Position numbers and translations under genes: made by a program. Of a stretch of 64,000 bases of DNA, positions 1,310 through 30,852 are shown one piece after another (the first letter of the stretch is position 1; each line of letters opens with the position of its first letter). The notes beneath the pieces are model-generated. The model saw only the letters and a program-made list of their open reading frames with translations. It was not told the DNA's origin and did not search any database. The DNA comes from a virus. The stretch lies in the IMG/VR virus record IMGVR_UViG_3300044712_001292, positions 39,000 to 102,999 of that record. One strand, written 5' to 3'.

Positions 1310-3163
1310 ATGACGACGTTCATTCCTCCCCCGCGGCCTGTGGCCGGAGCCGTCGGCAGCGGAGGCGCAGACAAGCCGGTTATCTCACCGTGGATGGACT
1401 ACGCATCGTTGACGATGCCGGACAGCCACCAGCTGGTGATGTGGTGGGCGCAGTATCTGTGGATGATGGATGGTAACTATAGGACGGCGATGGAGCGGGT
1501 TGCCGCCCACTTCCTGACCATCATCGAGTTCCCCGATCTGGAGCCTGACGAAGAGAGCGAGTGGCGCGACTTCTTCAGCAACCACATGAACTACCGCCGT
1601 GAGCTGCTTGCCTGCGCTCACGAATACCTCTGCTACGGCAACCTCATCGTTGGCTTGTACCTTCCCTTCAAGCGGTTCGCCCGGTGCCGTAACTGCTCCG
1701 TCGAGAACCCGCTGAGCGAAGTCGATTACGAGCTAGAGCTTGTTGATAAGCACCCGTACCTGCACTGGCGCAGGGTGCGCCCCTGCCCGAAGTGTCAGGA
1801 TAAGCAGACATATGAGGTTTTCGACCGCCGGTCGTCCGATCTATCCAAGGTGCGGCTGAACCGGTATTGCCCGCTTGAAATCGAAATCGCGTTCAACCGC
1901 CACAGCCACAGCAAGAATATCTACTGGAATATACCGGACGATGAGGTTCGTGATATTCAGCAGAAAGCACGCATCCATATCGACGAGACACCGCTCGAGG
2001 TGCTGGAGACGGTCGCGGCCGGCGGTAAGCTGCACTTCAACAGCGACCTGATCCTGCATATCGATGAGCCGTGCATCAGCGGTGTTCGCACGCGTGGCTG
2101 GGGCGTGCCGCGTACGATCGCCAACTTCCGTACGGCGTGGATGCAGCAGGTGACGAGTAAGGCGGACCAGACCGCGATGCTCGACTACACACTCGGTATG
2201 CGCTGGATCTCCCCGTCGCCGACACCCGGCGGCACGGATCCGATGATGAATCGTGGCATGCAGGAGTTCGTCGCGCAGATCAGCGCTGCAGTGCGTGAGC
2301 ATCGTCTCAATCCGGCGTCATACCACACGTCACCGTATCCGCTGACGTACCAGTTCATGGGCGGTGAAGGCGGCGCACTCGTGCCTCCGGAGAAGCTCAA
2401 GTTCCGTCAGCAGGAATACCTGAACCAGCTCGGTATTCCTCTGGAATACCATCAGATGAACCTGAGCACGCAGGCCGCTCCCATGGCGCTGCGTCTGTTT
2501 GAGTCGTACTGGCAAGCCCTCCCGGCGTTCTACAACAAGATCCTTACGTGGATCACGGAGATGCTGTCCAAGACGTATAATCTCGAGGCGACATCGGTTC
2601 AGATGCAGAAGACCACCGTTGTCGACGACGCCAACTACAAGGCGCTGTTGCTGCAGCTGATGTCTGGCAACCAGCTTTCTCCCCAGACCGCGCTCGAGCC
2701 GCTTGGCATCAACGCGCACGAGGAGGTCAAGAAGGTCTACCGTCACCAGGACTATGTCAGCCGGGTACAGTCCGAGTTCGACGAGAAGGCCCAGAAGCGG
2801 CAGGAGATGGCGGCGTTCAAGTCGCAGGTACAGCAGCCGACGGCAGCCCAGCTCGCCCAGCAGCAGCAGGGCGGGGCGCCTCCGCCTCCTGGAACTCCGA
2901 TGGGTGGTGTTCCGACCGGAGGCATGCCTGGCGCATCTCCGAATACGCCTCAGACGCTGGCTGGTCTGGCGGATCAGGCGTCTCAGATCGCTCAGCAGCT
3001 CGTGACGCTGCCTGAGTTCGAGCGTAAACAGCAGCTCAAGCAGCTTCGTGAGGGGAACAAGCAGCTGCACGCCCTGGTTATGAGCGATATGGAGGACCTG
3101 CGGGAGGCAGCTGCCAACCAAGGTAAGCAGATGATCCTTCAACAGGGACCCCCGCAGGGCTAG
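1310..3163 (+). CDS. Probable portal protein with Zn-ribbon insertion and Gln/Pro-rich tail
   Basis: 617 aa; portal-like EYLCYGN segment and GWGVP motif; CRNC...CPKC insert; heads the head module. Confidence 0.7.
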   Translation: MTTFIPPPRPVAGAVGSGGADKPVISPWMDYASLTMPDSHQLVMWWAQYLWMMDGNYRTAMERVAAHFLTIIEFPDLEPDEESEWRDFFSNHMNYRRELLACAHEYLCYGNLIVGLYLPFKRFARCRNCSVENPLSEVDYELELVDKHPYLHWRRVRPCPKCQDKQTYEVFDRRSSDLSKVRLNRYCPLEIEIAFNRHSHSKNIYWNIPDDEVRDIQQKARIHIDETPLEVLETVAAGGKLHFNSDLILHIDEPCISGVRTRGWGVPRTIANFRTAWMQQVTSKADQTAMLDYTLGMRWISPSPTPGGTDPMMNRGMQEFVAQISAAVREHRLNPASYHTSPYPLTYQFMGGEGGALVPPEKLKFRQQEYLNQLGIPLEYHQMNLSTQAAPMALRLFESYWQALPAFYNKILTWITEMLSKTYNLEATSVQMQKTTVVDDANYKALLLQLMSGNQLSPQTALEPLGINAHEEVKKVYRHQDYVSRVQSEFDEKAQKRQEMAAFKSQVQQPTAAQLAQQQQGGAPPPPGTPMGGVPTGGMPGASPNTPQTLAGLADQASQIAQQLVTLPEFERKQQLKQLREGNKQLHALVMSDMEDLREAAANQGKQMILQQGPPQG

Positions 3164-3165
3164 TC

Positions 3166-3193
3166 TTGCAGGCTCGAAAAGGACCCATAAGGT
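3166..3193 (+). promoter_or_regulatory. Putative promoter TTGCAG-16-TAAGGT, 6 nt before ATG 3200 (leaderless)
   Basis: Member of a fixed-spacing motif found before many genes here. Confidence 0.6.
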
Positions 3194-3199
3194 ACCCCC

Positions 3200-3718
3200 A
3201 TGCGTACGACTGATATCCTGACCAAGGCTATGTGTAAGGCGGCCGCTGATTCGGGTGAGTCTGCTAGTTATCTCGATCAGCTCCCGTTCCTGGGCAGCAC
3301 GGTTCTCGGCGGTATCATCGGACGCCGCATGGGCGCTTCTGGAAGCGCCCGCCGCGGATTCGGAGCAACGCTTACAGGCGCTACGCTGGGTGGGGTGGCG
3401 GGAGTGAAGGCTCAGGACGCACGCGATTCAGCGTTGCGTGAGATCGATCGCCACGGCGACGCCCCGCTTGTTCAGGGCGCGAACGCAGCTATCGACGCTG
3501 CTGGGGCCGCCACTGAACGCATGCGCGACCCGTTTAAGGATACGCTGGCTCGGAAGCCGGAGCCGACCTTACTCGAGCGCGCTGGTAACGTCGCCGGACA
3601 GTACTGGCGGAATCTCAAGTCAGGGGATCCGCTGACGATTGCGGGAACCGGGGCCGCAGCTATACTCGCAGGCGTGCTAACGCACCAACTCCTCAAGAAG
3701 AAGCGCGCTCGCGCTTAA
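3200..3718 (+). CDS. Gly-zipper membrane-type virion protein
   Basis: GxxxG hydrophobic segments; N-terminal KAA; C-terminal GAAAILAGVLTHQLLKKKR. Confidence 0.7.
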   Translation: MRTTDILTKAMCKAAADSGESASYLDQLPFLGSTVLGGIIGRRMGASGSARRGFGATLTGATLGGVAGVKAQDARDSALREIDRHGDAPLVQGANAAIDAAGAATERMRDPFKDTLARKPEPTLLERAGNVAGQYWRNLKSGDPLTIAGTGAAAILAGVLTHQLLKKKRARA

Positions 3719-3733
3719 TAAAGGAACATCACC

Positions 3734-4510
3734 GTGTCTACGAAGCTCGAGAAGACTGCTCAGTTCCTGAAGAAAGTGGCCGCCGAGGGCGGCTCTATCT
3801 GGAACAAGAGCCTGTACGGTGGCCCAGAGGCCCCCTTCCAGCAGCCGAGTCACTACCCGGCTGAGGTCATACATCGCCTCCTTGCCGAGGCTGATAAGCT
3901 CCCTGAGGGCTCGGACGAGGCTGCCGCAGCTGCGAGTGCTCGGCAGGCGATCACTGAGGCCGGTGGTATGCACAAGCTCGATCAGGCCGGGATTGATCGC
4001 ATTGCGGTTCGCGCCGGTGCGAGCCCCGCCGACAAGAACACTCCGGGCTTCTGGAGCAACTATCGCGCAGCTATGGGCCGTGGCCACCTGGGAGCTACCG
4101 CTGCCACCGTCGGCATTGGCGCTGCAGCCGTTCTGGCCGGTGTGCTGACCTACAATGCGCTGAAGAAGAAGCGTACGCAGACAAAGACCGCCGGACTCTT
4201 CAGCTTCCGGCGGAGTAATTCGCCGAATGCCCAGGGCCCTGCTCCTACCCGCGCCGCAGAACGTACCCAGAAGGTCCGCGATCTCGTAGGCAAGAAGGTT
4301 CGTAATGCGGCGCTGCTGGCAGGTGGCGGTGGCGCCCTCGCCGGCACGGCCGCTGGCGCTGCCCTGGCCTCCCCCGGCGATACCGTCGCGGGCGGCCACG
4401 GTCTCCCCACCACAGGCAGCAACCTGGGGGACGCAGCTGTCCTCGCTGGCGGCCTGGGCCTCGGGGGAGCCGGCCTGTACGCGCTGTACCGCTCCCTGCG
4501 CGACGAGTAA
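3734..4510 (+). CDS. Gly-zipper membrane-type virion protein, partial paralog of 3200..3718
   Basis: SD AAGGA before GTG; GAAAVLAGVLTYNALKKKR; KTA and KVA motifs. Confidence 0.75.
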   Translation: MSTKLEKTAQFLKKVAAEGGSIWNKSLYGGPEAPFQQPSHYPAEVIHRLLAEADKLPEGSDEAAAAASARQAITEAGGMHKLDQAGIDRIAVRAGASPADKNTPGFWSNYRAAMGRGHLGATAATVGIGAAAVLAGVLTYNALKKKRTQTKTAGLFSFRRSNSPNAQGPAPTRAAERTQKVRDLVGKKVRNAALLAGGGGALAGTAAGAALASPGDTVAGGHGLPTTGSNLGDAAVLAGGLGLGGAGLYALYRSLRDE

Positions 4511-4523
4511 GCCAGGGCGCCTC

Positions 4524-4559
4524 GAAAGACCCTCGCTATTGGCGAGGGTCTTTTCGTTT
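4524..4559 (+). terminator. Intrinsic terminator-like hairpin
   Basis: AAAGACCCTCGC-TATTG-GCGAGGGTCTTT followed by TCGTTT. Confidence 0.7.
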
Positions 4560-4566
4560 ATAGGAT
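4539..4566 (+). promoter_or_regulatory. Putative promoter TTGGCG-16-TAGGAT, 6 nt before ATG 4573
   Basis: Fixed-spacing motif. Confidence 0.55.
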
Positions 4567-9320: not shown

Positions 9321-12300
9321 ATGGACGCACCAGTTACGTACCGCCGCTTCGATGATATCGACGGGCAGCGCCAGGACATCTTCGACCTCGCGAAGCAGTC
9401 CATCGGGTCTATGAAGCCGTTCTCGACGCCGTCACACAGCGTCGAGATAGCTGACGTCGACTACGATGACGACTACAATCCGTCGATCGCTGAGGAGAAG
9501 GACGCCATCCTCAAGAGGAAGTCGTTGCAGCGTGCGCTGAAGGGTACGGTACGGCTGAAAGACGCTCAGGGTAATGTCGTCGAAGAGCAGCGGATGACGC
9601 TGGCCCACGTCCCCTATCTCAACTCACGCGGGCTCTTCATCCGAAACGGCGTGCCCTACGCGGTCCGTAACCAGCTGCGGCTGCGTCCGGGAGTTTATAC
9701 ACGCAAGCAGCGGAGCGGCGGCTACGAGAGCCAGTTCAACGTCCGCCCGGGGACCGGGCGCGGATTCCGTGTAGAGATGGACCCTGAAAGCGGTCTCTTC
9801 AAGATGCGCGTCGACCAGTCGACGACCAAGCTCTATCCTGTCCTCAGGGCGATGGGAGTGTCTGACGACGACATGCGTCAGGCGTGGGGCGACGATCTGT
9901 TTGAGAAGAACGCCGCAACCAGCAAGGGTCGAGACGAGCTAGACCTCTCCAAGCTGGTCCGCAAGCTCAGCGGCAAAGACGAGGATGTCGATCCCGAGAC
10001 AGCAGCGGAAGCCCTTCGTAACATCCTGCAGAAGAGTGAAGTGGATGAGGATACGACGGAGCTGACGCTCGGTGAGCGCGTTGCCCGTATCGAACCGAGG
10101 CACATCCTGGCTGCAACGCGGAAGCAGCTCGCTGTCGCACGCGGAGAGGCGGAGTCCGACAACCGTGACTCACAGGCGTATCAGTCGTTTCATGCCGCCC
10201 AGGACCTGCTGGCAGAACGTATGCGGCGTGACGCTACGGGGGCCGCTCGCAACTCGTTCTGGAAGGCTGCGCGGTTACAGTCGCTGAAGAACCTGCAGCC
10301 GGGGTTCATGAACCCGAACATCGGGTCGTTGTTCGAGGGTAGCGGGCTTGCCCTGACCGTTGAAGACATCAATCCGATCGACGTGTACGACACGCGCCAG
10401 GCAGTTACCCGTCTCGGGGAAGGCGGCATGTCGCGTGATGCGGTCAGTCGTGACGCTCGCAACGTCCAGAGCAGCTACATCGGCGTTATCGACGCTTCGC
10501 GCGCACCCGAGTCGGACGCGATCGGCGTAGACCTGCGCGTAACTGACGCCGCGATGCGCGGAAGTGACGGCCAGCTGTATACAACCGTGCGTAACCTGAA
10601 GACCGGCCAGCTCGAGACGCTGTCCGCGCGAACACTCTCGACAAAGTCCGTTACGTTTCCGGGAGAGATGGGGAACGAGGGAAAGCGCGTGCCTGCCATA
10701 CGGGGTGATCGCATCACCTACGTTCCTAAGAGCGAAGTCGACTACGAGGTCGTGAGCCCGGATGACATGGCGTCGCGCGCATCACGCCTGATTCCTTTCC
10801 CGGAAGGCATCAAGGGACAGCGTCTGCTCATGGGCGCTCGTATGACATCTCAGGCGGTTCCGCTTCAAGAGCCTGAGGCCCCATTCGTTCAGACGGGTAA
10901 CGCGGACGGGTCGTCTCTGCACGCTGCAATGGGCAGGGACGTCGGTGCCCGCATGTCTCCAGCCGACGGCATCGTGACCAAGGTAACACCAGACGTCATT
11001 GAGATGACGGGTAACGACGGACAGAAGCATCAGATTCAGCTCTATAACAACTACCCCACGGCCCGGAAGACCGTGCTGCACAACGACCCCGTCGTGCAGC
11101 CTGGCACGGTTGTGAAGGCCGGTCAGATGCTGGCCAGGTCCAATTTTACCGACGATAAGGGAACCTTCGCTATCGGGCGTAACCTGCGCGTTGGATACAT
11201 GGTTGCCGAGGGCGATAGCATCGAAGACGCCTTCGTCATCTCCGAAAGCGCAGCCAAGAAGCTGGGCGCTCAGGCGATGTACAAGGCGGATCTCGACCTC
11301 GGTCAGATCGCCTCGACAGACAAGTCCTCCTATAACGCGGTGTACGCCGGCAAGTACAGCCCCCAGCAGCTGGATCAGATCGATGACGACGGCGTCATCA
11401 AAGTGGGTGCTACCGTTCAAAAGGGCGACCCGCTGATACTCGCCATCGGCAACAAGCCGCAGTCCCTGGTCGGGGCAGTGACGAAGTCAGCCAAGTCTCA
11501 GGTGTCTGACCAGTCGCAGGTGTGGGAACACGCCGCTCCGGGAATCGTTACCGATATCAGCCGGACGAAGGACGGCATACGTGTGCTGGTCCGTTCGTAC
11601 GATGTCACGCAGGTTGGCGACAAGCTCTCCGGTCGTTACGGCAATAAGGGCGTGGTCAGCGCTCAGATTCGGCCAGACGACCAGATGCCGATCGCTGCCG
11701 ACGGGAAGCCGCTGGAAGCCATCATCAACGCCAATGGCATCATCAGTCGCGTCAATCCGGCAGCCCTAGCAGAGTCGCTGTTGGGTAAGATCGTGGAACG
11801 CACCGGGCGTGATCCGTACATTGTCAAACCGTTCAGCACCCCGGAAGGCATCGCTGATTTTGCGCTGAACGAGGCGGCCAAGCACGGGATCAGCGAGACG
11901 GAGACCGTCGTAGACCCGCGCGACGGCCGTAAGATCCCCAATGTCTTCGTCGGCAACTCCTACATCATGCGCCTTCATCATAAGGCCGAAGGCAAGATCA
12001 GCGGTAGAGATCAGGGCACCTACACGGTCGACGAATACCCAGCCCGTGGCGGCGCTGAAGGCTGCTTCATCGCCGAGCAGCCTGTTCTTACGCGGTTTGG
12101 CAGCATGCCCATCGGAGATATCGTTCATCTGAAGGCGGAGGTCCATGTATTGACGTGGTCTGACGTCGCCGGTAGCTGGGTCTATCGCCCCGTGACGGAC
12201 TGGTTCGAGTACACAGCACGGGCGTCCGACCTGCGAGTTGTCGAGCTAGAGCCTTCGACCGGCATTACGCACAACGTATTCACGGCGACACTAAATCACA

Positions 12301-17440: not shown

Positions 17441-19310
17441 AAAGCTGACGAACATCGGTGCGCTATTGATCAGCGAAGCCCTTCCCGAGGAGCTGCGTCA
17501 GGATCAGTACGACCTCAATAAGAAGTCCGTACACGACCTGTTCATGAAAGTGGCCAACACGTACCCTGACCGGTACAAGGATATCCTGCAGAAGCTGTCG
17601 GATGTCGGTGCCACGGCCGCGTGGACAGAGGGGGCGAGTGTTAGCCTCTCGGCGTTAAAGCGTTCAGCTGCGAAGGAGAAGGTGCTGGCTGATGTTCGCC
17701 GTCAGGTACAGTCCATCATCGACGACGATAACCTGACGGACGACCAGCGTGAGAAGGCCATTGTCGAGGCCCTCATCGACAAGATCGAGCCTGTACAGAA
17801 AGCGGTGTACGAAGAATCGAAGCAGGAGGGCAGCCCGTTCGTCATGCAGCTCGACAGCGGTGCGCGTGGAAAGAAGACGGATATCAACAGCCTGAGAGGC
17901 GCAGACCTGCTTGCTACCGACGCACAGGATCGCTTCCTGCCTGTCCCGCTGTGGCGGAGCTATGCTGAAGGCATGACCCCTGCGCAGTATTTCGCGGCAA
18001 GCTACGGACAGCGTAAGGGTGCGGTCGGCGTGAAGCTGGCTACTGCCGACGCAGGCTATATGGCCAAGCGCCTGGCGAATGCGGCACATCGGTTCGTTGT
18101 CAGCCGTGAGACACCTCCTCAGGCACGCCTGCCCGTTGGTCTTCCGGTACCAGTAAAGGACCGGGATAATGTAGGGTCATACCTCGCGCAGGACGCCGGA
18201 CCGTTGAAGGCAGGCACGTTGCTGACAAGCGATCACCTCGATGATCTCGAGGACGCGGGCGTCGACGAGATACTCGTCCACTCACCGATGACCGAGCCGT
18301 CTGAGGACGGCGGCATCAGCCGCCTCGCCGCCGGCAAGCGCCTGAGTTCAGGCCCAGCGCCTATCGGAGAGAACATCGGTCTTCAGTCGGCACAGACCAT
18401 CGGCGAGCGTCTCAGCCAGGGCGCTCTAGGGGCGAAGCACAAAGAGCTGTCGTCAACGACGGTTGACAAGTCCGGTATCGAGTATTTGAACAGACTGCTC
18501 GACGCCCCTGAGAACTTTCCAGAGGCCGGACCCCTTGCTGAGGAGGACGGCGTCGTCGGCAACATCGTGAAGGCTCCGCAGGGCGGCCACCATCTCTCCA
18601 TCGGTAAGCGGACCTATTACATCCCAGAGGGCATAAACCCGGTTGTAAAGTCTGGCGACCATGTGGAAGCCGGAGACGAGTTGACCGACGGAACACCCCA
18701 CCCGGAGCAGCTGGTGCGCCTTCGTGGTGTCGGCGAGGCTCGGCGGGTCTACATGCAGCACTTCCGCGACGCGCTGGCGGCATCCGGTGCGACTACGCAC
18801 CGCCGGAATCTCGAGCCGGTTGTTGCGGGACTGTTGAATTGGGCCCGTGTCACGAACCCCGACGGCATAGGCGATAACGTGTACGACGACGTCGTACCAG
18901 TAAACCGTCTTATAAGTCAATACAAGCCAAGGCCTAATGCGAAGGAAGACTCTCCGGATATGTCGGTAAACCGCTATCTGGAAGAGCCCGTACTGCACTA
19001 CACGCCGGGAACTCGTATTACGAAGCGGGTAGCTAACCATCTGAAGAAGTGGAATATCAAGTCCGTGTTCACGCACGACAGCCCTCCGGACTTCGAACCG
19101 CAGATGGTCAGGTCGATGTATTCCGTCTTCTACGACCCCGACTGGCGTACGAAACTCCTTGGTTTCTACACATCAAACGCGTTTATGCAGTCGCTACACC
19201 GTGGTGCTGAGTCTGACACGGCAAGCACGTCCTACGCCCCCGCCCTCGCCAAGCCGTCCGTTCTTGGCCGTCACCTCTCCTCCCTTGGCAAATACGGACA
19301 TGCCCGTTAG
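17433..19310 (+). CDS. rpoC: RNA polymerase beta' C-terminal subunit
   Basis: SGARG; bridge helix EGMTPAQYFAASYGQRKG...TADAGYMAKRL; trigger loop GENIGLQSAQTIGERLSQGALGAKH. Confidence 0.93.
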   Translation: MAEKLTNIGALLISEALPEELRQDQYDLNKKSVHDLFMKVANTYPDRYKDILQKLSDVGATAAWTEGASVSLSALKRSAAKEKVLADVRRQVQSIIDDDNLTDDQREKAIVEALIDKIEPVQKAVYEESKQEGSPFVMQLDSGARGKKTDINSLRGADLLATDAQDRFLPVPLWRSYAEGMTPAQYFAASYGQRKGAVGVKLATADAGYMAKRLANAAHRFVVSRETPPQARLPVGLPVPVKDRDNVGSYLAQDAGPLKAGTLLTSDHLDDLEDAGVDEILVHSPMTEPSEDGGISRLAAGKRLSSGPAPIGENIGLQSAQTIGERLSQGALGAKHKELSSTTVDKSGIEYLNRLLDAPENFPEAGPLAEEDGVVGNIVKAPQGGHHLSIGKRTYYIPEGINPVVKSGDHVEAGDELTDGTPHPEQLVRLRGVGEARRVYMQHFRDALAASGATTHRRNLEPVVAGLLNWARVTNPDGIGDNVYDDVVPVNRLISQYKPRPNAKEDSPDMSVNRYLEEPVLHYTPGTRITKRVANHLKKWNIKSVFTHDSPPDFEPQMVRSMYSVFYDPDWRTKLLGFYTSNAFMQSLHRGAESDTASTSYAPALAKPSVLGRHLSSLGKYGHAR

Positions 19311-22554: not shown

Positions 22555-22560
22555 ACCTCG

Positions 22561-22606
22561 CGCATACGTAGGCTGTTGATTACTAACAGCCTACGTATAG
22601 TATGCG
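22561..22606 (+). promoter_or_regulatory. Inverted repeat overlapping putative promoter TTGATT-16-TAGTAT, 6 nt before ATG 22610
   Basis: ATACGTAGGCTGTT/AACAGCCTACGTAT arms (22564-22598). Confidence 0.6.
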
Positions 22607-22609
22607 TCT

Positions 22610-23398
22610 ATGCTTGCTCCTGACAAGCCGGATTGGCGCTGGCACGTTGTAACGCCGCTGCTGGAATTTTCCGCGGTACACGCTGCCCCGTATATTCAAA
22701 AGCTCGACCCAGCAACCCAAAAGGTCTACCGGTTCCGCCGGCAATTTCGTGACCGCGCGGTCACAACGCTTGGGGAGTTCGTCAACGCGCACGAAGTGTG
22801 GATGAACCGCCCGTATCAGCGAGCCGTGCTTGAGGGCCTCCTCGTTGGCGGAGCTACTGATGACGTCATTCAAGGGGAGATGGAGATCGGTAAAGACGAC
22901 ATCAGTGCCTACGTATCCATGTTTTTCGATATTCGCGGTCGGAAGCGCGTTGATATCGCTAACATGGTATTCCAGGGTATGCCCCATAAAGGGTTTCATC
23001 CGCAGGATCGCACCGGTTCGCTGCATCGATTGGGTTGGTTCGGGGGCCACAAGTTAATACGCGCTATCCTGGCCCAGGGTCTGAACGCTGACGAAGAACA
23101 GCTGCTGTGCGCCAAGGTCTGCCGTGATATCGTGCGTCGCCAGCTTCCGGAAATCGGCCTCAATACAGGCACGCAGTCGCAGTTCGCCCCCGATGTGCTC
23201 CGTCTGTCCACCGAATGGGATGAGGGCACTAAGACCGATGACGACCCGTTGTCCGAGGTTGCCGGCCACCTGGTTCAGTTGGTGCGCGGCCCGGGTAGCA
23301 GCGGTGGCGTGAGCGTTGCAGACCCCTCAGACCCAGCTAATCTCAACCTGCCGGCCGCTGAGCCGCCCTACGTCGTACCCCATGAGGCTCGCCCATGA
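22610..23398 (+). CDS. Hypothetical protein
   Basis: 262 aa ORF preceded by the promoter motif. Confidence 0.7.
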   Translation: MLAPDKPDWRWHVVTPLLEFSAVHAAPYIQKLDPATQKVYRFRRQFRDRAVTTLGEFVNAHEVWMNRPYQRAVLEGLLVGGATDDVIQGEMEIGKDDISAYVSMFFDIRGRKRVDIANMVFQGMPHKGFHPQDRTGSLHRLGWFGGHKLIRAILAQGLNADEEQLLCAKVCRDIVRRQLPEIGLNTGTQSQFAPDVLRLSTEWDEGTKTDDDPLSEVAGHLVQLVRGPGSSGGVSVADPSDPANLNLPAAEPPYVVPHEARP

Positions 23399-24681: not shown

Positions 24682-26198
24682 ACACGGCCGACCTCGCTCA
24701 TGGGCTCGTCAAGCACGCCGAAGAGGCTGGGGTGCTTGACGATAGTGAGGACCTCGACGCCGACCCGAGCTCTGCCGATCGTCGGCAGAAGCTGCGCATG
24801 GCCCTGTACGGAGTCGGTCTTCTGGGAGCTGGTGGTCTCGCTGCATGGGGCCTGTCTGGCGACTTGGGCAAGCGTCTCGGGTCGATGTTCGAAAGCGGCA
24901 AGCGTTCGCTGTTCGGAACGAGTTCCACCAGCGAAACGATGATGAACCCGCTGACGCACGGCCTCGCCGCTGGTGCAGCTGCAGCGGTTACGCGTAATGC
25001 TCCGGCCGGAAAAGCGCTGTCGGACATCGACGAGAGTGGACGTGTTAAGGTACGTCCTCTTCCGGAGAAGTCTGGAAGGCTGCCCGGCAAGGTGGAGGAG
25101 TTCGTTTCCGCCACAGGCCTCGTTCCGCGTACGTCTCCTGAGCGTGTTCGCAGCGACTACAACACGCTGTCATCGAAGGAAGCCCCTCAGGACCACTGGT
25201 TCGGGTCCATGCTTCGTACAGAGTCGCACCCGCCGTCGAGCGAGGCTGTTGATAACGTTCGTACGTTTCAGGACGAACTGAAGTCGAACGTAGCACCGCC
25301 CGCAGGAAACCTGACGGAAGTCCATAAGCCTACGCCTCCGAGCCCGTCTGCTGGCGCTAAGGCGATGAAAGACTACCAGAAGGCCCTCGCTGAGTACAAC
25401 ACGTACGTGCAGGCCAAGCAGGATGAGACCGTGCTGGGTAGCGTTCGCGCCGAACGCAACCCGCAGAAGTTCGTTGATGCCATAGCCGAGTACTCGCGCC
25501 TGCCTGCGAACACGCCGATGAACGCGGTCTTCTCCGGGGCCTTCTACCGCACGAAGGACGGCCTTATTCCGGTTGGTGCTACCGGGATGAACGCTGCCGA
25601 ACTGCTGCAGAACAAGAATAACATCGTGTTCCGGTCGCTGGATCCGAAGACAGGTGTTCTCAAGGATATACCCATCGACACGGTCGACACAGGCTTCGCC
25701 GGGTCCGAGATGGGGCGCGTACAGAGCCGCGGTCTTGCCCGCGACGCATCTGAACTCCTTGCCTCGCCGACAGAGAAGACGCGGCAGTTCCTGATTCAGC
25801 AGGCGCACGCTCCCAACGAACTGAGCCTGGCGCTGCAGCTGAAGGCCCTTGGCACCCCTGAGGCGGATACGCTGGGTCGCGCGCTGATGCAGAGCGGACT
25901 GCTTCGGCACTATACGGGGGCATACGCCAGCTCCCGCCATGTCCCTGATATGCGCTTCTCCCCGACGAACGAGGCGAGGCTCATCCAGCTGATTCGCGAC
26001 TACGTCCAGCCCGACACGCAGCAGCGTGCATCAGCAGTCATAGCGCTCGGTAAGGCTATGAACCAGCGCAGGTACCCGTCCGGCGTTCTTCCGCCGATCC
26101 GGCGTGCCGCTGTCGTCGGCGGGGCTACCGCAGCGCTGTCCGCCCTTCTGCAAACAGGCCTCGGGTACGGGGCGACGGGGATCCTCGGTCGTGATTAA
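24678..26198 (+). CDS. Hypothetical virion protein with Gly-rich hydrophobic segments at both ends
   Basis: 506 aa; N-terminal LVKHAEE. Confidence 0.7.
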   Translation: MNTADLAHGLVKHAEEAGVLDDSEDLDADPSSADRRQKLRMALYGVGLLGAGGLAAWGLSGDLGKRLGSMFESGKRSLFGTSSTSETMMNPLTHGLAAGAAAAVTRNAPAGKALSDIDESGRVKVRPLPEKSGRLPGKVEEFVSATGLVPRTSPERVRSDYNTLSSKEAPQDHWFGSMLRTESHPPSSEAVDNVRTFQDELKSNVAPPAGNLTEVHKPTPPSPSAGAKAMKDYQKALAEYNTYVQAKQDETVLGSVRAERNPQKFVDAIAEYSRLPANTPMNAVFSGAFYRTKDGLIPVGATGMNAAELLQNKNNIVFRSLDPKTGVLKDIPIDTVDTGFAGSEMGRVQSRGLARDASELLASPTEKTRQFLIQQAHAPNELSLALQLKALGTPEADTLGRALMQSGLLRHYTGAYASSRHVPDMRFSPTNEARLIQLIRDYVQPDTQQRASAVIALGKAMNQRRYPSGVLPPIRRAAVVGGATAALSALLQTGLGYGATGILGRD

Positions 26199-27486
26199 CA
26201 AACTCGTCACATCCAGTTCGTTCGACTTCGGCGATACGGCGTCACGCCTTGTTCCTCTGCATCGAGGTGGCGTCGACAGCCAGTGGATGCGGAAGCACGC
26301 ATCTGGCGATCTCTTCGCCAAAGAGATAGCCGGCTTACGTCCGAATAGCAAAGAGACGGTTCTGCACATCATCGCCTTAGGCGATGAGGAGACGTTCGGA
26401 CCGAATCGAAATGGTGACGCGTTCAGCAAGTCGGACAACGTGAACGCCCACGGGCTGTTCAAGACCATAGGCCATGTCTTCCGGAACCACAAGAATCAGG
26501 ACCCGGCTAAGTCCATCGGCAGAGTGCTCGCCACCGCTCACAACGATATCATGGATCGTGTCGAGCTGCTGGTAGCCCTCAATAACGATAAGTGCCGGAA
26601 CGAGGTCGAGGCCGTTAATAACGGTGAAGACATTCCGTTCAGCATGGGATCGTCGCAGGAGTTCGACGTCTGCTCCATCTGCAAGCATAAGGCTCCGACC
26701 GCAGCGGACCACTGCAGTCATATACAAAATATGCTCGGCGAGGTTCTCTCCGACGGTCGTAAGGTGTACATGAAGAACCCGAATCCGCGGTTCTTCGACA
26801 TCAGCGTCGTGTACAAGCCTGCCGACCGTATCGCCTATAGCCTGCGTAAGGTGGCGTCACACGGAGCGGCTGTCATCGGTGGTCACGAACTGGCGGAGAT
26901 GTTCGGCGTGTCCGCCGCCCCGTCGACAAAGGTCGCTACGATGCAGGCGCTCGCCGAGATGGTCAAAGAGATCCCCGCTGTCGCGCGTAAGGTAGCCTCT
27001 CCGCGGCGTGTTCGCGCAGACACAAAGCAGGAACTCTGCAAGGCAGCGGCTGCCTACGGTATCGACCAGCTTCTCGGTGCGCTAACCCGTTCCGGATTCA
27101 TGCTCGCCCCAGAAGACTTCGCGGAGATCGCTACCGGGGCTCCGGAATCCGACGCCGCTGTAGACGATGCCTGCGGGTGCGGGCTGCAGGATATTCTGGA
27201 CGACCACCAGCAGATCGAGGCGTTCGATCCGCCGCTCGCCCAGGACGTCATTCCTTTGTCGCAAGGCGCTCTGGACGACCTGTCCTGCTCGTGTGGGATG
27301 CAGCCTGCTGCAGCTCAGCGTCGGGCGCTCATTATTGTTATCCGCCCATCCGTCAAGGTAGCCTCTCACGCAGATCCTGTGGCCGTTCACGGTCTGTCGA
27401 TGCTCTATAAGCACTACAAGGTAGCATTCGCTCACGCCCACGCACACCGTCCTGACATGATCAGGTCAGTTGCGTCCACGTTCTAA
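26191..27486 (+). CDS. Prohead maturation protease (HK97/assemblin-like fold) with Zn-finger insert
   Basis: NRNGDAF, VFRNH..IG, FSMG, FFDISVV..PAD; CSIC..HCSH; lies just upstream of scaffold and MCP; GTG start overlaps the upstream stop. Confidence 0.8.
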   Translation: MINKLVTSSSFDFGDTASRLVPLHRGGVDSQWMRKHASGDLFAKEIAGLRPNSKETVLHIIALGDEETFGPNRNGDAFSKSDNVNAHGLFKTIGHVFRNHKNQDPAKSIGRVLATAHNDIMDRVELLVALNNDKCRNEVEAVNNGEDIPFSMGSSQEFDVCSICKHKAPTAADHCSHIQNMLGEVLSDGRKVYMKNPNPRFFDISVVYKPADRIAYSLRKVASHGAAVIGGHELAEMFGVSAAPSTKVATMQALAEMVKEIPAVARKVASPRRVRADTKQELCKAAAAYGIDQLLGALTRSGFMLAPEDFAEIATGAPESDAAVDDACGCGLQDILDDHQQIEAFDPPLAQDVIPLSQGALDDLSCSCGMQPAAAQRRALIIVIRPSVKVASHADPVAVHGLSMLYKHYKVAFAHAHAHRPDMIRSVASTF

Positions 27487-27547: not shown

Positions 27548-28747
27548 ATGTCGAAGAACAAGCTCACCGCTGATCTCGATCGCCTCATCAAGCGGGCCGC
27601 CGAAGTAAAGGCGACCGGCATCAAGAAGGCCGAGGACGTCAGTGCCAAGCTGGACAAGGCCGAGGACGGCACCGTTGCCGCCACCACCGGCGCCCACGCT
27701 GCCGACAACAAGGCTGAGGCCGCCAAGATCACCGCCGGTGCTGTTGACGGTGGTGCCAAGGACAACCAGGCCAACGGCTCTGTCGCCAACAACACGGATG
27801 GCAGCAAGGCCACCGCTACCGACGGCCAGAAGGGCCCGGCTGCTGGCGAGTTCCCCATCAAGGGCGAGGCCGACAACGGCCCCACCAAGGGCGAGGGCAA
27901 GTTCGCTGGCGTCCGCAAGCTGGCGAATGACCTGCGTGCTGCCGCTGACGGTCTGCTGACCGGCTTCGACAAGTTCCTGGTCAAGTCGGCTCGCGCCTCC
28001 GAGGATAAGCAGGTCAAGACTGCTGCCGAGGGCATGGGCGACGACGAGCTGGCTGATCAGGCCTCGGATGCTCTGATGGAGCAGATCGCGGCTGGTCAGG
28101 TCAGCGACGCAGATGCCGAGCAGATCCTGCAGGAGGCGGTCCAGGCCGGCGCTATCACCCCGGACGAGCTGGAGCAGGCTGCTCAGCTCGCTCACGAGGC
28201 CAGCGGCGGTGCTGAGGCCGAGGCCGCTCCTTCTGACGAGGAGCAGATGAAGGTCGCGGCTGCTCAGATCACCCCGGAGCACCCGAAGTACCTCGAGAAG
28301 CTCGCCTCGATCTACGACGAGGATATGCGCGCTGGCTACGCCTTCTTCACCAAGCTCGCGTCGGAACTCGTGGCTGAGGCCGAGAAGGCCCCGGCTGAGG
28401 AGAAGGAAGAGAAGGCTGAGGAGGCCGCTGAGACCCCGGCCGAAGAGAAGGCTGAGGAAAAGGCTGAGGGGAAGGAAAAGGCTGCTCCGCTCGCTGGCGC
28501 TGAGACCCCGGCTGAGGAGAAGAAGGAGCAGGAGATCGTCGACGCTATGTCTGGCGTCGATCTCAAGCCCGCCGACGACGCTGAGAAGCAGGCCCTCGAG
28601 GCCGTCAAGCAGGAGCTCGGCCTGAACGACGGTCAGCTGGCCGAGATCGCTGCCGCCCCGCTGCCTGCCCCTCAGGACAAGGTGGCCGCCGCAAAGGCCA
28701 AGTACCGTTCTGCTATCATGGCCAAGGTTGCGGCCCTGAAGAAGTAA
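27548..28747 (+). CDS. Probable capsid scaffolding protein
   Basis: 399 aa, acidic and Ala-rich, strong codon bias, about ten K-x-A motifs; follows the protease. Confidence 0.75.
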   Translation: MSKNKLTADLDRLIKRAAEVKATGIKKAEDVSAKLDKAEDGTVAATTGAHAADNKAEAAKITAGAVDGGAKDNQANGSVANNTDGSKATATDGQKGPAAGEFPIKGEADNGPTKGEGKFAGVRKLANDLRAAADGLLTGFDKFLVKSARASEDKQVKTAAEGMGDDELADQASDALMEQIAAGQVSDADAEQILQEAVQAGAITPDELEQAAQLAHEASGGAEAEAAPSDEEQMKVAAAQITPEHPKYLEKLASIYDEDMRAGYAFFTKLASELVAEAEKAPAEEKEEKAEEAAETPAEEKAEEKAEGKEKAAPLAGAETPAEEKKEQEIVDAMSGVDLKPADDAEKQALEAVKQELGLNDGQLAEIAAAPLPAPQDKVAAAKAKYRSAIMAKVAALKK

Positions 28748-28772
28748 CATAATCTTCCAACAGGATACACCT

Positions 28773-29192
28773 ATGTCGTACAAGCTCCTCAAGCAGGCTG
28801 CTGACCAGCTCGATAAGCTGGCCTCCGAACTGGAGGCCAGCGAGAAGGCCCTCGCCCAGGCTACCGCCCAGGCGAAGACCGCAGCTGCTACCCCCGCACC
28901 CGTCAAGCCCAGCGAGGACGAGAAGGCTGCTCGCCTGTCTCAGGCCAAGCTCGCTGCTGACAAGCTCCTCGAGGCAGGTCTGCTGAGCAGCGCTGAAAAG
29001 CGTGATCAGTTTGCTGCCGAAATCGTCGACCCGGTCGTGGCGATCCAGAAGATCGCCAAGCTGGCGGAGACGGTCTCTGTTCCTCGGCTGGGACGCGTCG
29101 TTGTCGACGAGACTCAGACCAAGGTCGCTAGCTCCGACGACGTCTGGGCTGGTCACGTGCGTTCCGCCCTGTCCCGTCTCAACCTCAAGTAA
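28773..29192 (+). CDS. Small scaffold/core protein
   Basis: 139 aa coiled coil with many K-x-A motifs; SD AGGA. Confidence 0.75.
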   Translation: MSYKLLKQAADQLDKLASELEASEKALAQATAQAKTAAATPAPVKPSEDEKAARLSQAKLAADKLLEAGLLSSAEKRDQFAAEIVDPVVAIQKIAKLAETVSVPRLGRVVVDETQTKVASSDDVWAGHVRSALSRLNLK

Positions 29193-29224
29193 CCTCGTAG
29201 TCAGTCCTACAAGGAAGGTAAGTT

Positions 29225-29884
29225 ATGATCCAGTCCTCAATGGGAGCCCACAAGCTCGACGTCCGGTACGGCGACCGTAACACGCTGCCGTACTACAACG
29301 GTATCCTCAACAGCGCTCTGCTGTCGGACGCCGACGTCGTGGCGGCCATCTGCGCCGGTGCGGTCTACTCGATCAACACCAGCGGCCTGCTGGTCCCCGG
29401 CGTTCTCGCCGCGGCCGGCGCCAACGGCGGCACCCAGCCCTTCTACGGCTGGTCCGGCCTCGACGCCAACAACTACCCGGACGTCAAGCGTACCGCTGGT
29501 ATGCCTGGCTTCCTGGACAAGCCGCAGCCTGCTCCGGGCGGCTATCCCTCGGGAACCAACGGCTTCCCGTTCCACGGCGTTCCCACCAGTGCTGGCCTTG
29601 TTGGCGCCTTCGCCACCATCGCTCACACCTTCGCGGGCGAGCTCAGCTCGACTGAGTTCAACACCGGCGCGTCCTACACCGTCGGCGCTCCTCTGACCTG
29701 CGTCGCAGCTGACAGCGTCAACAAGACGCTGCGCGGCAAGCTCCGTCCTGTGGCTGCGGCTACCGACACCATCGTCGGCTACGTCGCTCCCGCCGGCAAG
29801 TTCCTGAGCCCGGAGGGTTACAACACCCTGGCCTTCTACCCGGCCTTCGTGCTCGGAACCACCGTTCCCGCGAGCTTCGCCTAA
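29225..29884 (+). CDS. Probable head decoration/cement protein
   Basis: 219 aa Gly-rich beta protein directly upstream of MCP; YTVGAPLT..GKL..IVGYV pattern. Confidence 0.65.
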   Translation: MIQSSMGAHKLDVRYGDRNTLPYYNGILNSALLSDADVVAAICAGAVYSINTSGLLVPGVLAAAGANGGTQPFYGWSGLDANNYPDVKRTAGMPGFLDKPQPAPGGYPSGTNGFPFHGVPTSAGLVGAFATIAHTFAGELSSTEFNTGASYTVGAPLTCVAADSVNKTLRGKLRPVAAATDTIVGYVAPAGKFLSPEGYNTLAFYPAFVLGTTVPASFA

Positions 29885-29913
29885 TCCCTGATAAACACTG
29901 AAAGGTCACTGTC

Positions 29914-30852
29914 ATGTCACAGACGAAGCTCAGCGCTGCTCAGTCCAATAAGGCCTTCTTCGGCCTGCTCGAAGCCGGGCAGACCAAGGAAGCCCAGGAT
30001 ATGGTGTCGGACTTCACCCGCATCCGTATCCGCGAGTCCAGCGCGTTCGAGAAGATCATGCCGGGTGTCAAGATCAGCAATGATCAGCTGACCCCGCAGC
30101 TCGACACCGATAAGAATGTCAAGCTGGTGGAGCGCGAGCCCGGCTCGCCCGCCGCCATCACCATTCCTCTCGGCACCCAGCCCATCCAGTACTACTTCCG
30201 CGGCGACCGCTACCCGGTGTTCTTCGACCGTATCACCACGGTCAAGTTCACCAAGGACGTCTCGGAACTCCGCACCTACTCCATGGACATCCGCCAGGTC
30301 CTCACCGACCAGGCTATCCTGGACATGGACTTCGAGTTCGACCGCAAGATGCTTGCGGCCGTCGACTCGATCGTGGGCGGTGAGGGCAGCACTGTCGCTG
30401 CTACCGGCGTCATCCAGAACCGCAAGATCGTCGACGCGCTCGGCATCACCCGCAACTCGCTCTTCGAGCTGCGCAAGATCCTGCCCTCGACCTTCGCGCA
30501 CCTGGAGACGGTGACCATCCTGGTCAACAGCATCACCATCAACGACGTCGCGAAGTTCGGTCGCGATGAGGTCGGTGGCGATCTGAGCCAGAACATGTTC
30601 ACCAACGGCTTCCAGGAGAAGAACCTCCTGGGCTGCAACTGGATCGTCAGCAACAAGACCGAGCTGATCCCGGACAACACCTTCTACCTGTTCGCCTCGC
30701 CCGAGTTCATCGGCAAGTCGTTCATCCTGGAAGAGGTCACCGTCTTCCTCGACAAGAAGGCCTACAACATCGAGTGGTTCGCCTACTGCGAGCGCGGCGC
30801 CTCGATCGGCAACCCGGCCTCGGTCGCCAAGGCCCGTATCGCGACGTCGTAA
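29914..30852 (+). CDS. Major capsid protein (HK97 fold)
   Basis: 312 aa; strongest codon bias; FTRIRIRESSAFEKIMP start and PEFIGK..IEWFAYCERGASIGN end; followed by a terminator. Confidence 0.8.
   Translation: MSQTKLSAAQSNKAFFGLLEAGQTKEAQDMVSDFTRIRIRESSAFEKIMPGVKISNDQLTPQLDTDKNVKLVEREPGSPAAITIPLGTQPIQYYFRGDRYPVFFDRITTVKFTKDVSELRTYSMDIRQVLTDQAILDMDFEFDRKMLAAVDSIVGGEGSTVAATGVIQNRKIVDALGITRNSLFELRKILPSTFAHLETVTILVNSITINDVAKFGRDEVGGDLSQNMFTNGFQEKNLLGCNWIVSNKTELIPDNTFYLFASPEFIGKSFILEEVTVFLDKKAYNIEWFAYCERGASIGNPASVAKARIATS

Follow-up and report, generated by a model that had tools for sequence, protein, structure and literature searches.

The 64,000-nt stretch analysed here (the window; positions 39,000 to 102,999 of IMG/VR record IMGVR_UViG_3300044712_001292, from a large uncultured phage) encodes an enzyme that, judged by its sequence, is a bacterial-type RNA polymerase (RNAP) made of two chains: beta together with beta' to just past the DFDGD loop, and the remainder of beta'. 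The best explanation, which as a whole we consider probable, is that this is the only RNAP of a phage that measures roughly 190 kb and resembles Salmonella phage Arash, a distant cultured relative. Packaging in the virion and early, host-independent transcription are its most likely fate and function, by analogy with Arash, whose homologue is only 32% identical.

Table 1. Features of the head module and the sigma gene (window positions)
Feature	Size	Position	Strand	Basis or remark
Portal protein	617 aa	1310..3163	+	Arash portal gp204, 22% identity, E 7e-44
RNAP fusion chain (complete beta joined directly to beta' N-part)	1597 aa	9321..14114	+	Pfam; PDB phmmer; Arash gp206 homologue
Mini-intein (fusion residues 915-1063)	149 aa	12063..12509	+	Splice motifs; TIGR01443; alignment
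Head-module protein	256 aa	14111..14881	+	N-terminal K-L-A at residues 5-7
Pro/Ala/Met-rich repeat protein	208 aa	14919..15545	+	Conserved K-x-A near both ends
Head-module protein	573 aa	15547..17268	+	N-terminal K-L-A at residues 8-10
Newly recognised small gene	68 aa	17234..17440	+	Profile match E 6e-9; end overlaps beta'C start
RNAP beta' C-part (beta'C)	625 aa	17433..19310	+	Pfam Rpb1_5; PDB; Arash gp216
Conserved partner protein	728 aa	19336..21522	+	Directly after beta'C; in 62 of 81 loci
Prohead maturation protease	460 aa	26104..27486	+	phrog_18299 E 3e-10; Arash gp222, 39% identity, E 2e-38
Two K-x-A-rich proteins	399 and 139 aa	27548..29192	+	14 and 8 K-x-A sites
Major capsid protein	312 aa	29914..30852	+	phrog_2522 E 4e-7; Arash capsid protein gp226 E 1e-24
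Strong intrinsic terminator		30876..30910	+	16-bp stem then T run; ends head transcription unit
Sigma-70-family factor	241 aa	47252..47977	+	Sigma70_r3 E 1e-9 (above cut-off); no cysteine; in tail-gene string

The portal gene, the major capsid gene and three RNAP elements between them are all on the + strand, and the Pfam domains Rpb2_6 (E 1e-46), Rpb1_2 (E 3e-18) and Rpb1_5 (E 9e-11) are found on that strand. The junctions are tight: only 9 nt separate the fusion gene from its upstream neighbour, an ATGA overlap joins its stop to the start of the gene for the 256-aa protein, and the end of the 68-aa gene overlaps the start of the beta'C gene by 8 nt. The first-pass annotation had described two co-oriented, coupled RNAP genes in this interval; the location, strand and tight junctions stand, but the gene identities do not, as the presumed rpoB and rpoC are an intein-bearing fusion of beta with the N-part of beta' and a separate beta'C gene. 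The cassette order (fusion, Pro/Ala/Met-rich protein, protein of about 70 aa, beta'C, protein of about 730 aa) is shared by about 70 of 81 related IMG/VR loci, and the portal-to-capsid location of the RNAP is kept in about 70 loci despite only about 40% identity.

In the fusion chain, beta occupies residues 1 to about 1140 (intein counted in) and is followed by the N-terminal ~40% of beta', which runs to residue 1597. Rpb1_1 and Rpb2_3 are matched in addition to Rpb2_6 and Rpb1_2, and a phmmer search of the PDB retrieves bacterial beta at 8e-64 and aligns residues 1216-1595 to E. coli beta' 165-552. The motifs ED, GDK..GNKG and DFDGD are retained, with the catalytic GGDFDGD at residues 1505-1511; in comparison with bacterial beta', the zinc-binding domain is absent from the fusion and both beta' zinc sites are gone. 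The second chain, found 3' of the fusion in 70 of the 81 loci, comprises the bridge helix and a trigger loop that lacks SI3, and its C-terminus is divergent. It matches Thermus beta' 890-1385 (2e-38), E. coli beta' 681-954 and Arash gp216 (E 3e-46), and the split point corresponds to about E. coli beta' 566/567. The rifampicin pocket of the phage beta carries the substitutions Q513L, F514T, D516E, H526T, R529A and S531T, at positions that are classical resistance sites.

The first chain would mature by splicing-out of the mini-intein, which lacks an endonuclease domain and sits in a conserved beta motif (E. coli equivalent GG|QRFGEME, between G1267 and Q1268). It begins with CFIAEQ, has TLNH as block B and ends in LVSN followed by Ser; it scores 18.1 bits with TIGR01443 intein_Cterm, above the cut-off of that model, and only weakly with Pfam PT-HINT. 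It is a clean insertion in the alignment with Arash, and the fusions of the nearest relatives measure 1448 aa (1597 minus 149), with Ala at the +1 position.

Between the two chains lie both variable and family-wide genes. The 256-aa and 573-aa proteins, devoid of cysteine and with homologues in only two related loci and in four close relatives, respectively, are probably head-processed proteins, as suggested by their N-terminal K-L-A. The 208-aa protein groups with the ORF that follows the fusion in 66 loci, and thus represents a family-wide gene between the RNAP chains, a similarity that may be partly compositional; the N-terminal K and A are kept in at least 80% of the aligned sequences, and a K-x-A near the C-terminus occurs in most of the alignment rows listed. 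The 68-aa protein is matched by a profile that combines sequences from 25 relatives, 20 of them distinct, and this profile detects the gene in 68 of the 81 loci, invariably between the two RNAP chains. The AlphaFold2 model of this protein (pLDDT 94) has five strands and one helix and found no structural matches (Foldseek E at least 1, VIA Z at most 2.8); we regard it as a candidate small RNAP-associated protein. The 728-aa protein, weakly homologous to Arash gp218, gave a model with pLDDT 70 and no fold match. Most of its relatives carry an N-terminal extension terminating in an aligned K-x-A, and the presence/absence polymorphism of this extension marks the K-x-A as a propeptide boundary.

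Such signals pervade the head module: an N-terminal K-x-A occurs in 12 of 25 head-module genes versus 2 of 45 others (p 2.8e-5), and the major capsid protein itself carries K-E-A at residues 25-27. The 399- and 139-aa proteins, free of cysteine and with K-x-A z-scores of 1.6 and 3.4, N-terminal sites included, probably belong to the scaffold or core and serve as substrates of the protease. The description of the genes around the RNAP as probable internal head proteins is thus upheld for the neighbours; both RNAP chains lack the N-terminal K-x-A. The portal protein escaped Pfam and PHROG searches, and in the ESM Atlas it resembles portal clusters (feature score 0.94) and Portal_Mu clusters (structure TM 0.58-0.61). 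A hairpin scan of the + strand from 4573 to 30876 revealed no convincing terminator upstream of the one behind the capsid gene, only three weak 5-6-bp hairpins (at 5786, 17283 and 27317), with hairpin totals no higher than in shuffles.

A sigma-70-family factor, overlooked in the first-pass annotation, is encoded 38 kb downstream of the RNAP genes. It matches NCBIfam sigma families at about 1e-8 and phrog_351 at E 2e-10, and its orthologue is Arash Gp10 (27% identity, E 6e-15). Five complete relatives of 179-216 kb, three of them with terminal repeats, are available for comparison: in four, a sigma ORF follows the fusion at a distance of 36-44 kb and shares its strand, and the fifth has only a weak sigma match at about 58 kb from the fusion. 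Each of the five has one Rpb2_6 gene and hence a single RNAP set. The first-pass annotation had recognised neither alpha nor omega in the window and had suggested looking further for rpoA. The former observation holds, as PF01193 finds no match on the contig and PF01000, PF01193 and PF01192 find none in the five complete relatives; rpoA came to light neither on the contig nor in these genomes.

Evidence for packaging comes from Arash. In mass spectrometry of sucrose-gradient-purified virions, Gp206 has 3516 spectra, the highest count of all proteins; the counts are 1210 for Gp216, 1149 for Gp218 and 467 for Gp10, with 877 for the portal and 1333 for the capsid protein as references (PMC10585845). 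Per residue, the counts of Gp206, Gp216 and Gp218 in these data exceed that of the 12-copy portal. Cysteine provides a second clue. None is present in the 2073 residues of the mature enzyme, nor in sigma, which at a background of 0.56% has a probability of about 1e-5, and cysteine is likewise missing from 15 of 15 fusions of the family and from 48 of the 52 homologues of beta'C; this would fit an ejected protein, although it is no proof. The virion RNAP proposed at first sight is therefore supported, indirectly, by the spectra of Gp206, Gp216 and Gp10, the conserved head-module location and the absence of cysteine; the K-x-A signals of neighbouring proteins and the lack of a convincing terminator ahead of the one behind the capsid gene are further indirect support.

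The same Arash preparation contained 116 proteins, ribonucleotide reductases and RNA ligases among them, and the authors consider carry-over of abundant proteins possible (PMC10585845). This speaks for a different reading, which we judge unlikely: synthesis of the RNAP would follow infection, from internal promoters that escaped recognition, and the enzyme would transcribe middle or late genes, early genes would be left to the host RNAP, perhaps with a phage sigma, the location in the head module would be functionally meaningless, and the Arash signal would reflect carry-over of a very abundant protein. The missing K-x-A of the RNAP chains agrees with it, as do a second sigma, gp196, in Arash and the occurrence of sigma, beta' and beta in the replication modules of Cobetia phage Carin-5 and Rhizobium phage RHph_Y65. 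However, it does not sit well with the top rank of Gp206 and the per-residue excess over the portal, with the sigma orthologue being likewise present in the Arash virions, with a location retained at such low identity, or with the family-wide lack of cysteine in enzyme and sigma.

According to the packaging explanation, the two RNAP chains would be transcribed with the head genes, probably late; late co-expression is read from the operon layout only. Both chains would be built into the capsid alongside neighbours whose short N-terminal K-x-A signals are cut by the prohead protease; the RNAP chains have no such signal, which counts against the explanation. Upon infection, the RNAP would be ejected with the DNA and transcribe early genes without host RNAP, in a promoter-specific and presumably rifampicin-insensitive manner, with the phage sigma-70-family factor. 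With a single RNAP set in the genome, later stages are probably served by newly made enzyme too.

It could also be imagined that the enzyme is packaged mainly as a DNA-entry motor or as structural cargo, the genome being pulled in by transcription. T7 RNAP drives genome entry, and N4 vRNAP has a role in genome injection, but the argument is by analogy only. The high copy number suggested by the Arash spectral counts would agree with such a role; a dedicated sigma factor argues instead for promoter-specific initiation. As the main function we hold this to be highly improbable; it complements the packaging explanation more than it competes with it, and no evidence separates the two.

The sequence clearly marks the enzyme as bacterial-type, and the phiKZ-type enzymes stand much farther from bacterial RNAP than it does. 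Among solved structures, its best matches are without exception bacterial beta and beta', tblastn retrieves bacterial rpoBC records at 1e-30 to 1e-48 (no Pseudomonas records in the summary counts or among the 25 matches listed), and a sigma-70-family factor accompanies the enzyme. These observations would suit a recent or lineage-specific capture of a host rpoB-rpoC pair, yielding a lightly modified bacterial core enzyme, but we consider this improbable. The beta part shows 24-30% identity and 212-245 bits to Salmonella, Staphylococcus, a Cytophagia MAG and a Planctomycete MAG, from which it is about equidistant, whereas the bacterial phyla share 46-58% identity and about 1100-1290 bits among themselves. 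The close, gap-free match to bacterial RpoB/RpoC reported at first was thus overstated, and the independent capture from bacteria deduced from it is unsupported as stated. In a maximum-likelihood tree with bacterial RNAPs, a phylogeny that had been advised, the phage family and Arash make up one clade and the bacteria another, tight one; the two are separate with 100% support, and the long branches that join them measure 2.3 and 1.5 changes per site. Moreover, the best 150 of the 50%-identity representative clusters are all phage-type fusions, and the 'bacterial' records with the gene are only MAGs of mixed phyla, with no isolate genome among them. Derived features are common to the whole family: beta and beta' are fused, beta' is split, and the zinc domain and cysteine are missing. 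Since the enzyme is of bacterial type and nearer to bacterial RNAP than the phiKZ-type, it plausibly arose separately from the phiKZ lineage; donor, timing and direction are not readable from the data.

The closest known systems are Arash (OQ632216; PMC10585845) and the Vibrio phages D69, D148 and D181, which share the two-chain design of beta+beta'N fusion and separate beta'C, and the order portal, fusion, beta'C, protease, capsid gene. Arash also has the orthologous sigma, Gp10, in a structural gene string, and Gp206, Gp216 and Gp10 were all detected in its purified virions. Arash differs in that identity is only 32% for the fusion and 26% for beta'C, the intein is absent at the equivalent site, the intervening genes are different and partly on the other strand, the Pro/Ala/Met-rich and ~70-aa proteins are undetectable, and a helicase adjoins beta'C. 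The accessible text of the Arash report annotates 'beta' and 'beta-prime' and contains no description of fusion, split or missing alpha and omega (PMC10585845).

The virion RNAPs of phiKZ-like (Chimalliviridae) and AR9/PBS-type jumbo phages are packaged, injected and responsible for rifampicin-resistant early transcription (PMC7598289, PMC7824862, PMC13282480). Like the present enzyme, they belong to the multisubunit two-barrel class, lack alpha and omega, and have beta' split into N and C parts. However, they consist of four to five chains with beta also split, while beta here is whole and fused; they use no sigma-family factor; and two paralogous sets, virion and non-virion, occur per genome instead of one. 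Their chains are far more divergent, and none is among the best 60 solved-structure matches to the phage chains described here. The genes for the single-chain virion RNAPs of N4 (vRNAP), crAss-like phages (gp66-type) and P23-45 (tape-measure-fused) lie among those for structural proteins, and the packaged enzymes are delivered to carry out pre-early transcription (PMC10770324; 10.1101/2020.03.07.982082). They share the strategy proposed here, but are either unrelated, as is the N4 enzyme with its T7-like fold, or extremely diverged polypeptides without sigma, in contrast to a recognisable bacterial-type beta/beta' with sigma.

With the bacterial RNAP core the phage enzyme shares the full set of beta and beta' catalytic motifs, the trigger loop and bridge helix, a region of clamp helices that matches Rpb1_1, and the use of a sigma-70-family factor; it differs in the lack of alpha, omega, both beta' zinc sites and cysteine, in the altered rifampicin pocket, in the combination of fusion and split, and in an identity of 24-30%. 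Natural rpoB-rpoC fusions exist in Helicobacter and Wolbachia, where, as here, beta continues at its C-terminus straight into the N-terminus of beta', and an rpoC1-rpoC2 split is found in cyanobacteria and plastids. Finally, Cobetia phage Carin-5 and the Kleczkowskaviridae (Rhizobium phage RHph_Y65) also encode bacterial-type RNAP subunits, with a sigma gene adjoining them in Carin-5. Their beta' and beta are separate, unfused and located beside DNA polymerase genes and not in the head module, and Carin-5 beta, at 126 bits to the present family versus 212-245 for bacterial beta, forms its own long branch in the tree.

To judge from its sequence, the multisubunit RNA polymerase (RNAP) encoded in this probable head operon is a real and conserved enzyme of two chains, with its catalytic motifs intact and a predicted sigma factor of its own. 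Its two genes do not correspond to an rpoB and an rpoC: a complete beta subunit is fused to the N-terminal part of beta' (the fusion), and a separate chain carries the C-terminal part (beta'C). In the fusion, Pfam finds the beta domains first (Rpb2_3; Rpb2_6, E 1e-46) and then those of beta' (Rpb1_1; Rpb1_2, E 3e-18). Against solved structures, fusion residues 77-912 align with a cyanobacterial beta (86-980), and E. coli beta' 165-552 corresponds to residues 1216-1595; the C-terminal motifs of beta run on to about residue 1140. The beta'C chain contains the bridge helix and trigger-loop region (Rpb1_5, E 9e-11), aligns over residues 12-477 with Thermus beta' 890-1385 (E 2e-38) and also matches E. 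coli 681-954. When aligned with RpoC from four bacteria, the chains show a split in beta' at about E. coli 566/567, a trigger loop without the SI3 insertion and a short Gly-rich loop in place of the beta' zinc-binding domain (four Cys, E. coli C70-C88). The second zinc site of beta' is absent too, the mature chains both being free of cysteine.

The catalytic loop GGDFDGD occupies fusion residues 1505-1511, and 16 family members all have its three aspartates (D1507, D1509, D1511). When the beta motifs are aligned with RpoB of Salmonella, Staphylococcus, a Cytophagia and a Planctomycete, the barrel motifs GDKLSGRYGNKGV (GDK..GNKGV, with two Lys), SIEDA (with the ED pair) and RLHHKAEGK (the LHH/K region) are all present and intact. 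Substitutions are found at six positions that contact rifampicin (Q513L, F514T, D516E, H526T, R529A and S531T); because of these substitutions and the known genetics of rpoB resistance, the enzyme is predicted to be insensitive to rifampicin.

Features of the RNAP locus and head module, in window coordinates (Arash, a Salmonella phage, is a distant cultured relative)
Feature	Position	Strand	Length	Evidence or remark
Portal	1310-3163	+		Arash gp204, E 7e-44; ESM Atlas model TM ~0.6 to Portal_Mu-bearing clusters
Fusion, beta + beta' N-terminal part	9321-14114	+	1597 aa
Predicted mini-intein (fusion residues 915-1063)	12063-12509	+	149 aa	Clean insertion relative to Arash
Pro/Ala/Met-rich protein	14919-15545
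68-aa gene	17234-17440		68 aa	Profile E 6e-9; unlisted in the window annotation; overlaps the beta'C start by 8 nt
beta'C	17433-19310	+	625 aa
728-aa protein	19336-21522		728 aa
Prohead protease	26104-27486	+		phrog_18299, E 3e-10; Arash gp222, E 2e-38
Major capsid protein	29914-30852	+		phrog_2522, E 4e-7; Arash gp226, E 1e-24
Sigma-70-family factor	47252-47977		241 aa	Sigma70_r3, E 1e-9, above the cut-off

The source, a viral contig from IMG/VR, is linear, with a length of 102,999 bp, an estimated completeness of 53% (CheckV) and a G+C content of about 0.60; the window covers its bases 39000-102999. Its plus-strand genes form an almost continuous run from about 1.3 kb to 54.6 kb of the window. 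The earlier observation that the RNAP genes are co-oriented within the portal-to-capsid interval (the head module) was borne out, as the RNAP domains lie there on the same strand. Pfam and PHROG searches gave no match for the portal ORF, and Pfam, PHROG and NCBIfam gave none for the majority of the head-module ORFs. The junctions of the RNAP genes are tight, and a strong terminator (30876-30910) lies 3' of the capsid gene; a terminator scan from 4573 to 30876 found only weak plus-strand hairpins, at shuffle level. Immediately 3' of the gene at 3734-4510, a 12-bp hairpin with a T-rich tail (4525-4561, +), missed by the consensus scan, looks like an intrinsic terminator or attenuator within the head module. 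The whole 55-nt spacer 5' of the gene at 22610-23398 is taken up by a long palindrome (22555-22609, +) that is nearly perfect. A promoter scan with the sigma-70 consensus gave counts no higher than chance, and the intergenic spacers inspected contain AGGA-type ribosome sites and two hairpins only, with no phage promoter motif. Upstream of the window, a 999-aa protein (contig 28418-31417) with a NUDIX domain (residues 737-841, E 6.5e-8) might decap RNA or cleanse nucleotides for a phage with an RNAP of its own.

The fusion architecture is the mark of a very large family in uncultured phages, which numbers at least 757 clusters when grouped at 90% identity and more than 150 at 50% (E below 1e-182), and which occurs on 324 or more IMG/VR contigs, the longest of them 235 kb. 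Among the matches listed, the only sequenced isolates that share it are Arash and the Vibrio phages D69, D148 and D181. A search of bacterial genome contigs for the family gene returned MAG contigs of mixed phyla only, with no isolate genome and no prophage. These contigs, of 12-123 kb, occur in MAGs labelled Cytophagia, Aquaspirillum, Thermoanaerobaculaceae, Planctomycetota and Moraxellaceae, and one MAG holds two phage-type RNAP copies; they are probably mis-binned phage DNA and unreliable as host evidence. The "moraphage" lineage was considered as a relative and rejected, as it is without RNAP and unrelated (PMC12619734).

Gene order around the polymerase is largely conserved. In 70 of 81 related IMG/VR loci the fusion is followed, on its own strand, by beta'C, and in 62 a homologue of the 728-aa protein comes after beta'C. 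Between the two RNAP chains, a Pro/Ala/Met-rich repeat protein is found in 66 of the 81 loci and an ORF of about 70-80 aa in 68. The 68-aa protein has a confidently predicted, beta-rich fold (pLDDT 94) that matches no solved fold (Foldseek E at least 1; VIA best Z 2.8); omega, a helical protein, is unlike it. For the 728-aa protein the model (pLDDT 70) gave no fold match and ESM Atlas was uninformative. Both the Pro/Ala/Met-rich and the 68-aa protein are undetectable in Arash.

The sigma ORF is also matched by NCBIfam sigma families (about 1e-8) and by phrog_351 (E 2e-10). It lies downstream of the tail sheath gene (38865-40862), and its orthologue in Arash is Gp10 (27% identity, E 6e-15). In four of five complete relatives a sigma ORF follows the fusion, on its strand, at a distance of 36-44 kb; the fifth gave only a weak sigma match. 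Elsewhere on the contig (778-1413), a 211-aa ORF with weak matches to HTH_58 (E 6e-5) and Sigma70_r4 (E 2e-4) is possibly a second sigma-like or transcription factor. No alpha or omega subunit had been recognised in the window, and by profile search this extends to the complete relatives: PF01193 (alpha) found no match in the contig, nor did PF01000, PF01193 and PF01192 in the five complete relatives (179-216 kb), while the alpha and omega profiles were positive in all 14 control genomes. The phage enzyme may use host alpha. Each of the five complete relatives has one Rpb2_6 gene, and by gene content the two-chain enzyme is the sole RNAP that these phages encode.

The fusion gene is interrupted by an insertion that begins with C915, contains the block B motif TLNH and ends with N1063, followed by S1064; its penultimate residue is Ser, not the usual His. 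The TIGR01443 score exceeds the cut-off, and in E. coli beta numbering the insertion point falls between G1267 and Q1268. The nearest relatives of the fusion (74% identity) are intein-free proteins of 1448 aa, exactly 149 aa shorter, with Ala at +1. On account of the terminal residues, the TLNH block, the TIGR01443 score and the exact insertion relative to these proteins, the element is classified as a mini-intein. Across the family the fusion gene is a hot spot for inteins: 125 of 246 family representatives have between one and four insertions of 100 aa or more. The insertions recur at about ten sites, most of them in the context of a conserved motif (examples are the sites next to IGVID/ASR.PES, GNKGV, GGAEG/S and the catalytic GGDFDGD), and many family fusion proteins contain LAGLIDADG or intein Pfam domains.

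As to the origin of the enzyme, the statement that it aligns closely to bacterial RpoB and RpoC was too strong. Its beta part shows 24-30% identity (212-245 bits) when compared with the RpoB proteins from Salmonella, Staphylococcus, a Cytophagia MAG and a Planctomycete MAG, and those four are mutually 46-58% identical. A maximum-likelihood tree (LG+C20, 1006 columns) separates a bacterial clade, with all four sequences, from a clade of the family and Arash, each with 100% support, the branches joining the two clades measuring 2.3 and 1.5 changes per site. The beta of Cobetia phage Carin-5 forms a third long branch. This tree covers four bacterial phyla without an archaeal outgroup, phiKZ or AR9, so that the date and direction of a transfer are unreadable from it. 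A search of representative clusters returned family members for all of the best 150 matches, with no outgroup among them. Since the identities are low and similar and the clades are separate, no recent or identifiable bacterial donor is in sight, and the proposed independent capture from bacteria is not supported. There are no phiKZ or AR9 chains among the best 60 solved-structure matches, and no Pseudomonas phage among the tblastn matches listed (summary and 25 rows). The enzyme appears, in these comparisons, much nearer to bacterial RNAP than the phiKZ- and AR9-type enzymes are. An origin separate from the phiKZ lineage is plausible but unproven, given thin sampling and no outgroup.

Packaging of the polymerase in the virion and its delivery are the best explanation of the locus and seem fairly probable, judging from the proteomics of a distant homologue and from signs in the sequence. 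The Arash paper reports, for virions from a sucrose gradient, 3516 spectra for the fusion homologue Gp206, the highest of all proteins, about 1150-1210 each for the beta'C homologue Gp216, the helicase Gp217 and Gp218 (a weak homologue of the 728-aa protein), 467 for the sigma factor Gp10, 1333 for the capsid protein and 877 for the portal, in a preparation with 116 proteins in total (PMC10585845). Per residue, the RNAP chains give more spectra than the portal. Its authors offer both early transcription and carry-over as explanations of the virion RNAP (PMC10585845).

The position of the RNAP genes between the portal and capsid genes is kept in about 70 loci, and many of their neighbours carry the motif K-x-A, which is read as a prohead-protease signal. 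It occurs within the first 32 residues of 12 of 25 head-module proteins and of 2 of 45 others (Fisher p 2.8e-5), in most cases with a hydrophobic residue before it and an acidic or small one after it. Among the carriers are the capsid protein, the protease and three ORFs between the RNAP genes, and the density of the motif is raised in scaffold-like proteins and the protease. Relatives of the 728-aa protein mostly begin with an N-terminal extension, whose length varies from a few to about 45 aa, with an aligned K-x-A at its end and then (D/A/E)-(L/I)-G-G; the subfamily of the window has no extension and begins just past that point. The presence or absence of the extension across these relatives argues that K-x-A marks a propeptide boundary. 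Neither RNAP chain, here or in relatives, has an N-terminal K-x-A, which counts against packaging; a capsid-targeting or protease-processed signal on the polymerase is not universal among virion RNAPs. An invariant K60-x-A62 in the fusion was rejected as a cleavage site because it lies inside a conserved structural motif of beta.

A further sign is the lack of cysteine. There is none in the mature fusion (1448 aa), in beta'C (625 aa) or in the sigma factor (241 aa), the only two cysteines of the fusion ORF being located in the intein. With a background of 0.56% cysteine in the other genes, this has a probability of about 1e-5 for the two RNAP chains, and the same lack is seen in 15 of 15 further fusions of the family and in 48 of 52 beta'C homologues. 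Besides the RNAP chains, 11 head-module proteins are cysteine-free (those at 3734, 4573, 7591, 8218, 8559, 14111, 14919, 15547, 24678, 27548 and 28773); the portal has 8 cysteines and the protease 11.

It is quite possible, rather than probable, that in this widespread clade, whose phages are about 180-235 kb in size and account for at least 324 IMG/VR contigs, the capsid contains a complete two-chain holoenzyme of bacterial type, with sigma and without alpha, omega, zinc or cysteine, which as sole polymerase would make transcription independent of the host from injection on, and that the Pro/Ala/Met-rich, ~70-aa and ~730-aa proteins serve as its assembly or packaging partners. If true, there would be a path to a virion multisubunit RNAP unlike the phiKZ type in every architectural respect. 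If packaged and active, the enzyme would be a minimal, naturally re-engineered bacterial-type holoenzyme, a model for RNAP assembly without alpha, and a second, independent model for loading a large polymerase into a capsid and delivering it through a tail. It would also explain how very common uncultured large phages escape from host transcription, and from drugs or defences directed at host RNAP. Arash provides a cultured system open to direct testing.

Reviews of jumbo-phage RNAPs deal only with the sigma-less enzymes of the phiKZ and AR9 types (PMC7598289, PMC7824862, PMC13282480), and neither a marine jumbo-phage survey (PMC9123017) nor the "moraphage" paper (PMC12619734) treats the present type. 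Of this literature only the Arash paper, as far as its available text goes, touches on it, annotating the genes as beta and beta-prime and remarking on their abundance in virions, with no description of the architecture in that text (PMC10585845). In Cobetia phage Carin-5, genes for sigma, beta' and beta lie in a row beside DNA polymerase I in the replication module, and the bacterial-type RNAP subunits of Rhizobium phage RHph_Y65 are likewise encoded in the replication and not the head module.

To our knowledge, virion-delivered multisubunit RNAPs have so far been understood only from jumbo phages of the phiKZ and AR9 types, whose enzymes are very divergent and sigma-less. In those enzymes beta is divided over two or three chains, whereas here it is whole and fused; they have no sigma-family factor, while a sigma gene is present here; and they come as paired virion and non-virion sets, in contrast to the one Rpb2_6 gene per complete genome found here. 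In comparison with bacterial RNAP, the present enzyme is without alpha and omega, has lost both zinc sites and every cysteine, and has kept a sigma-70-type factor; beta is joined to beta', and beta' is cut elsewhere. It is still readily alignable.
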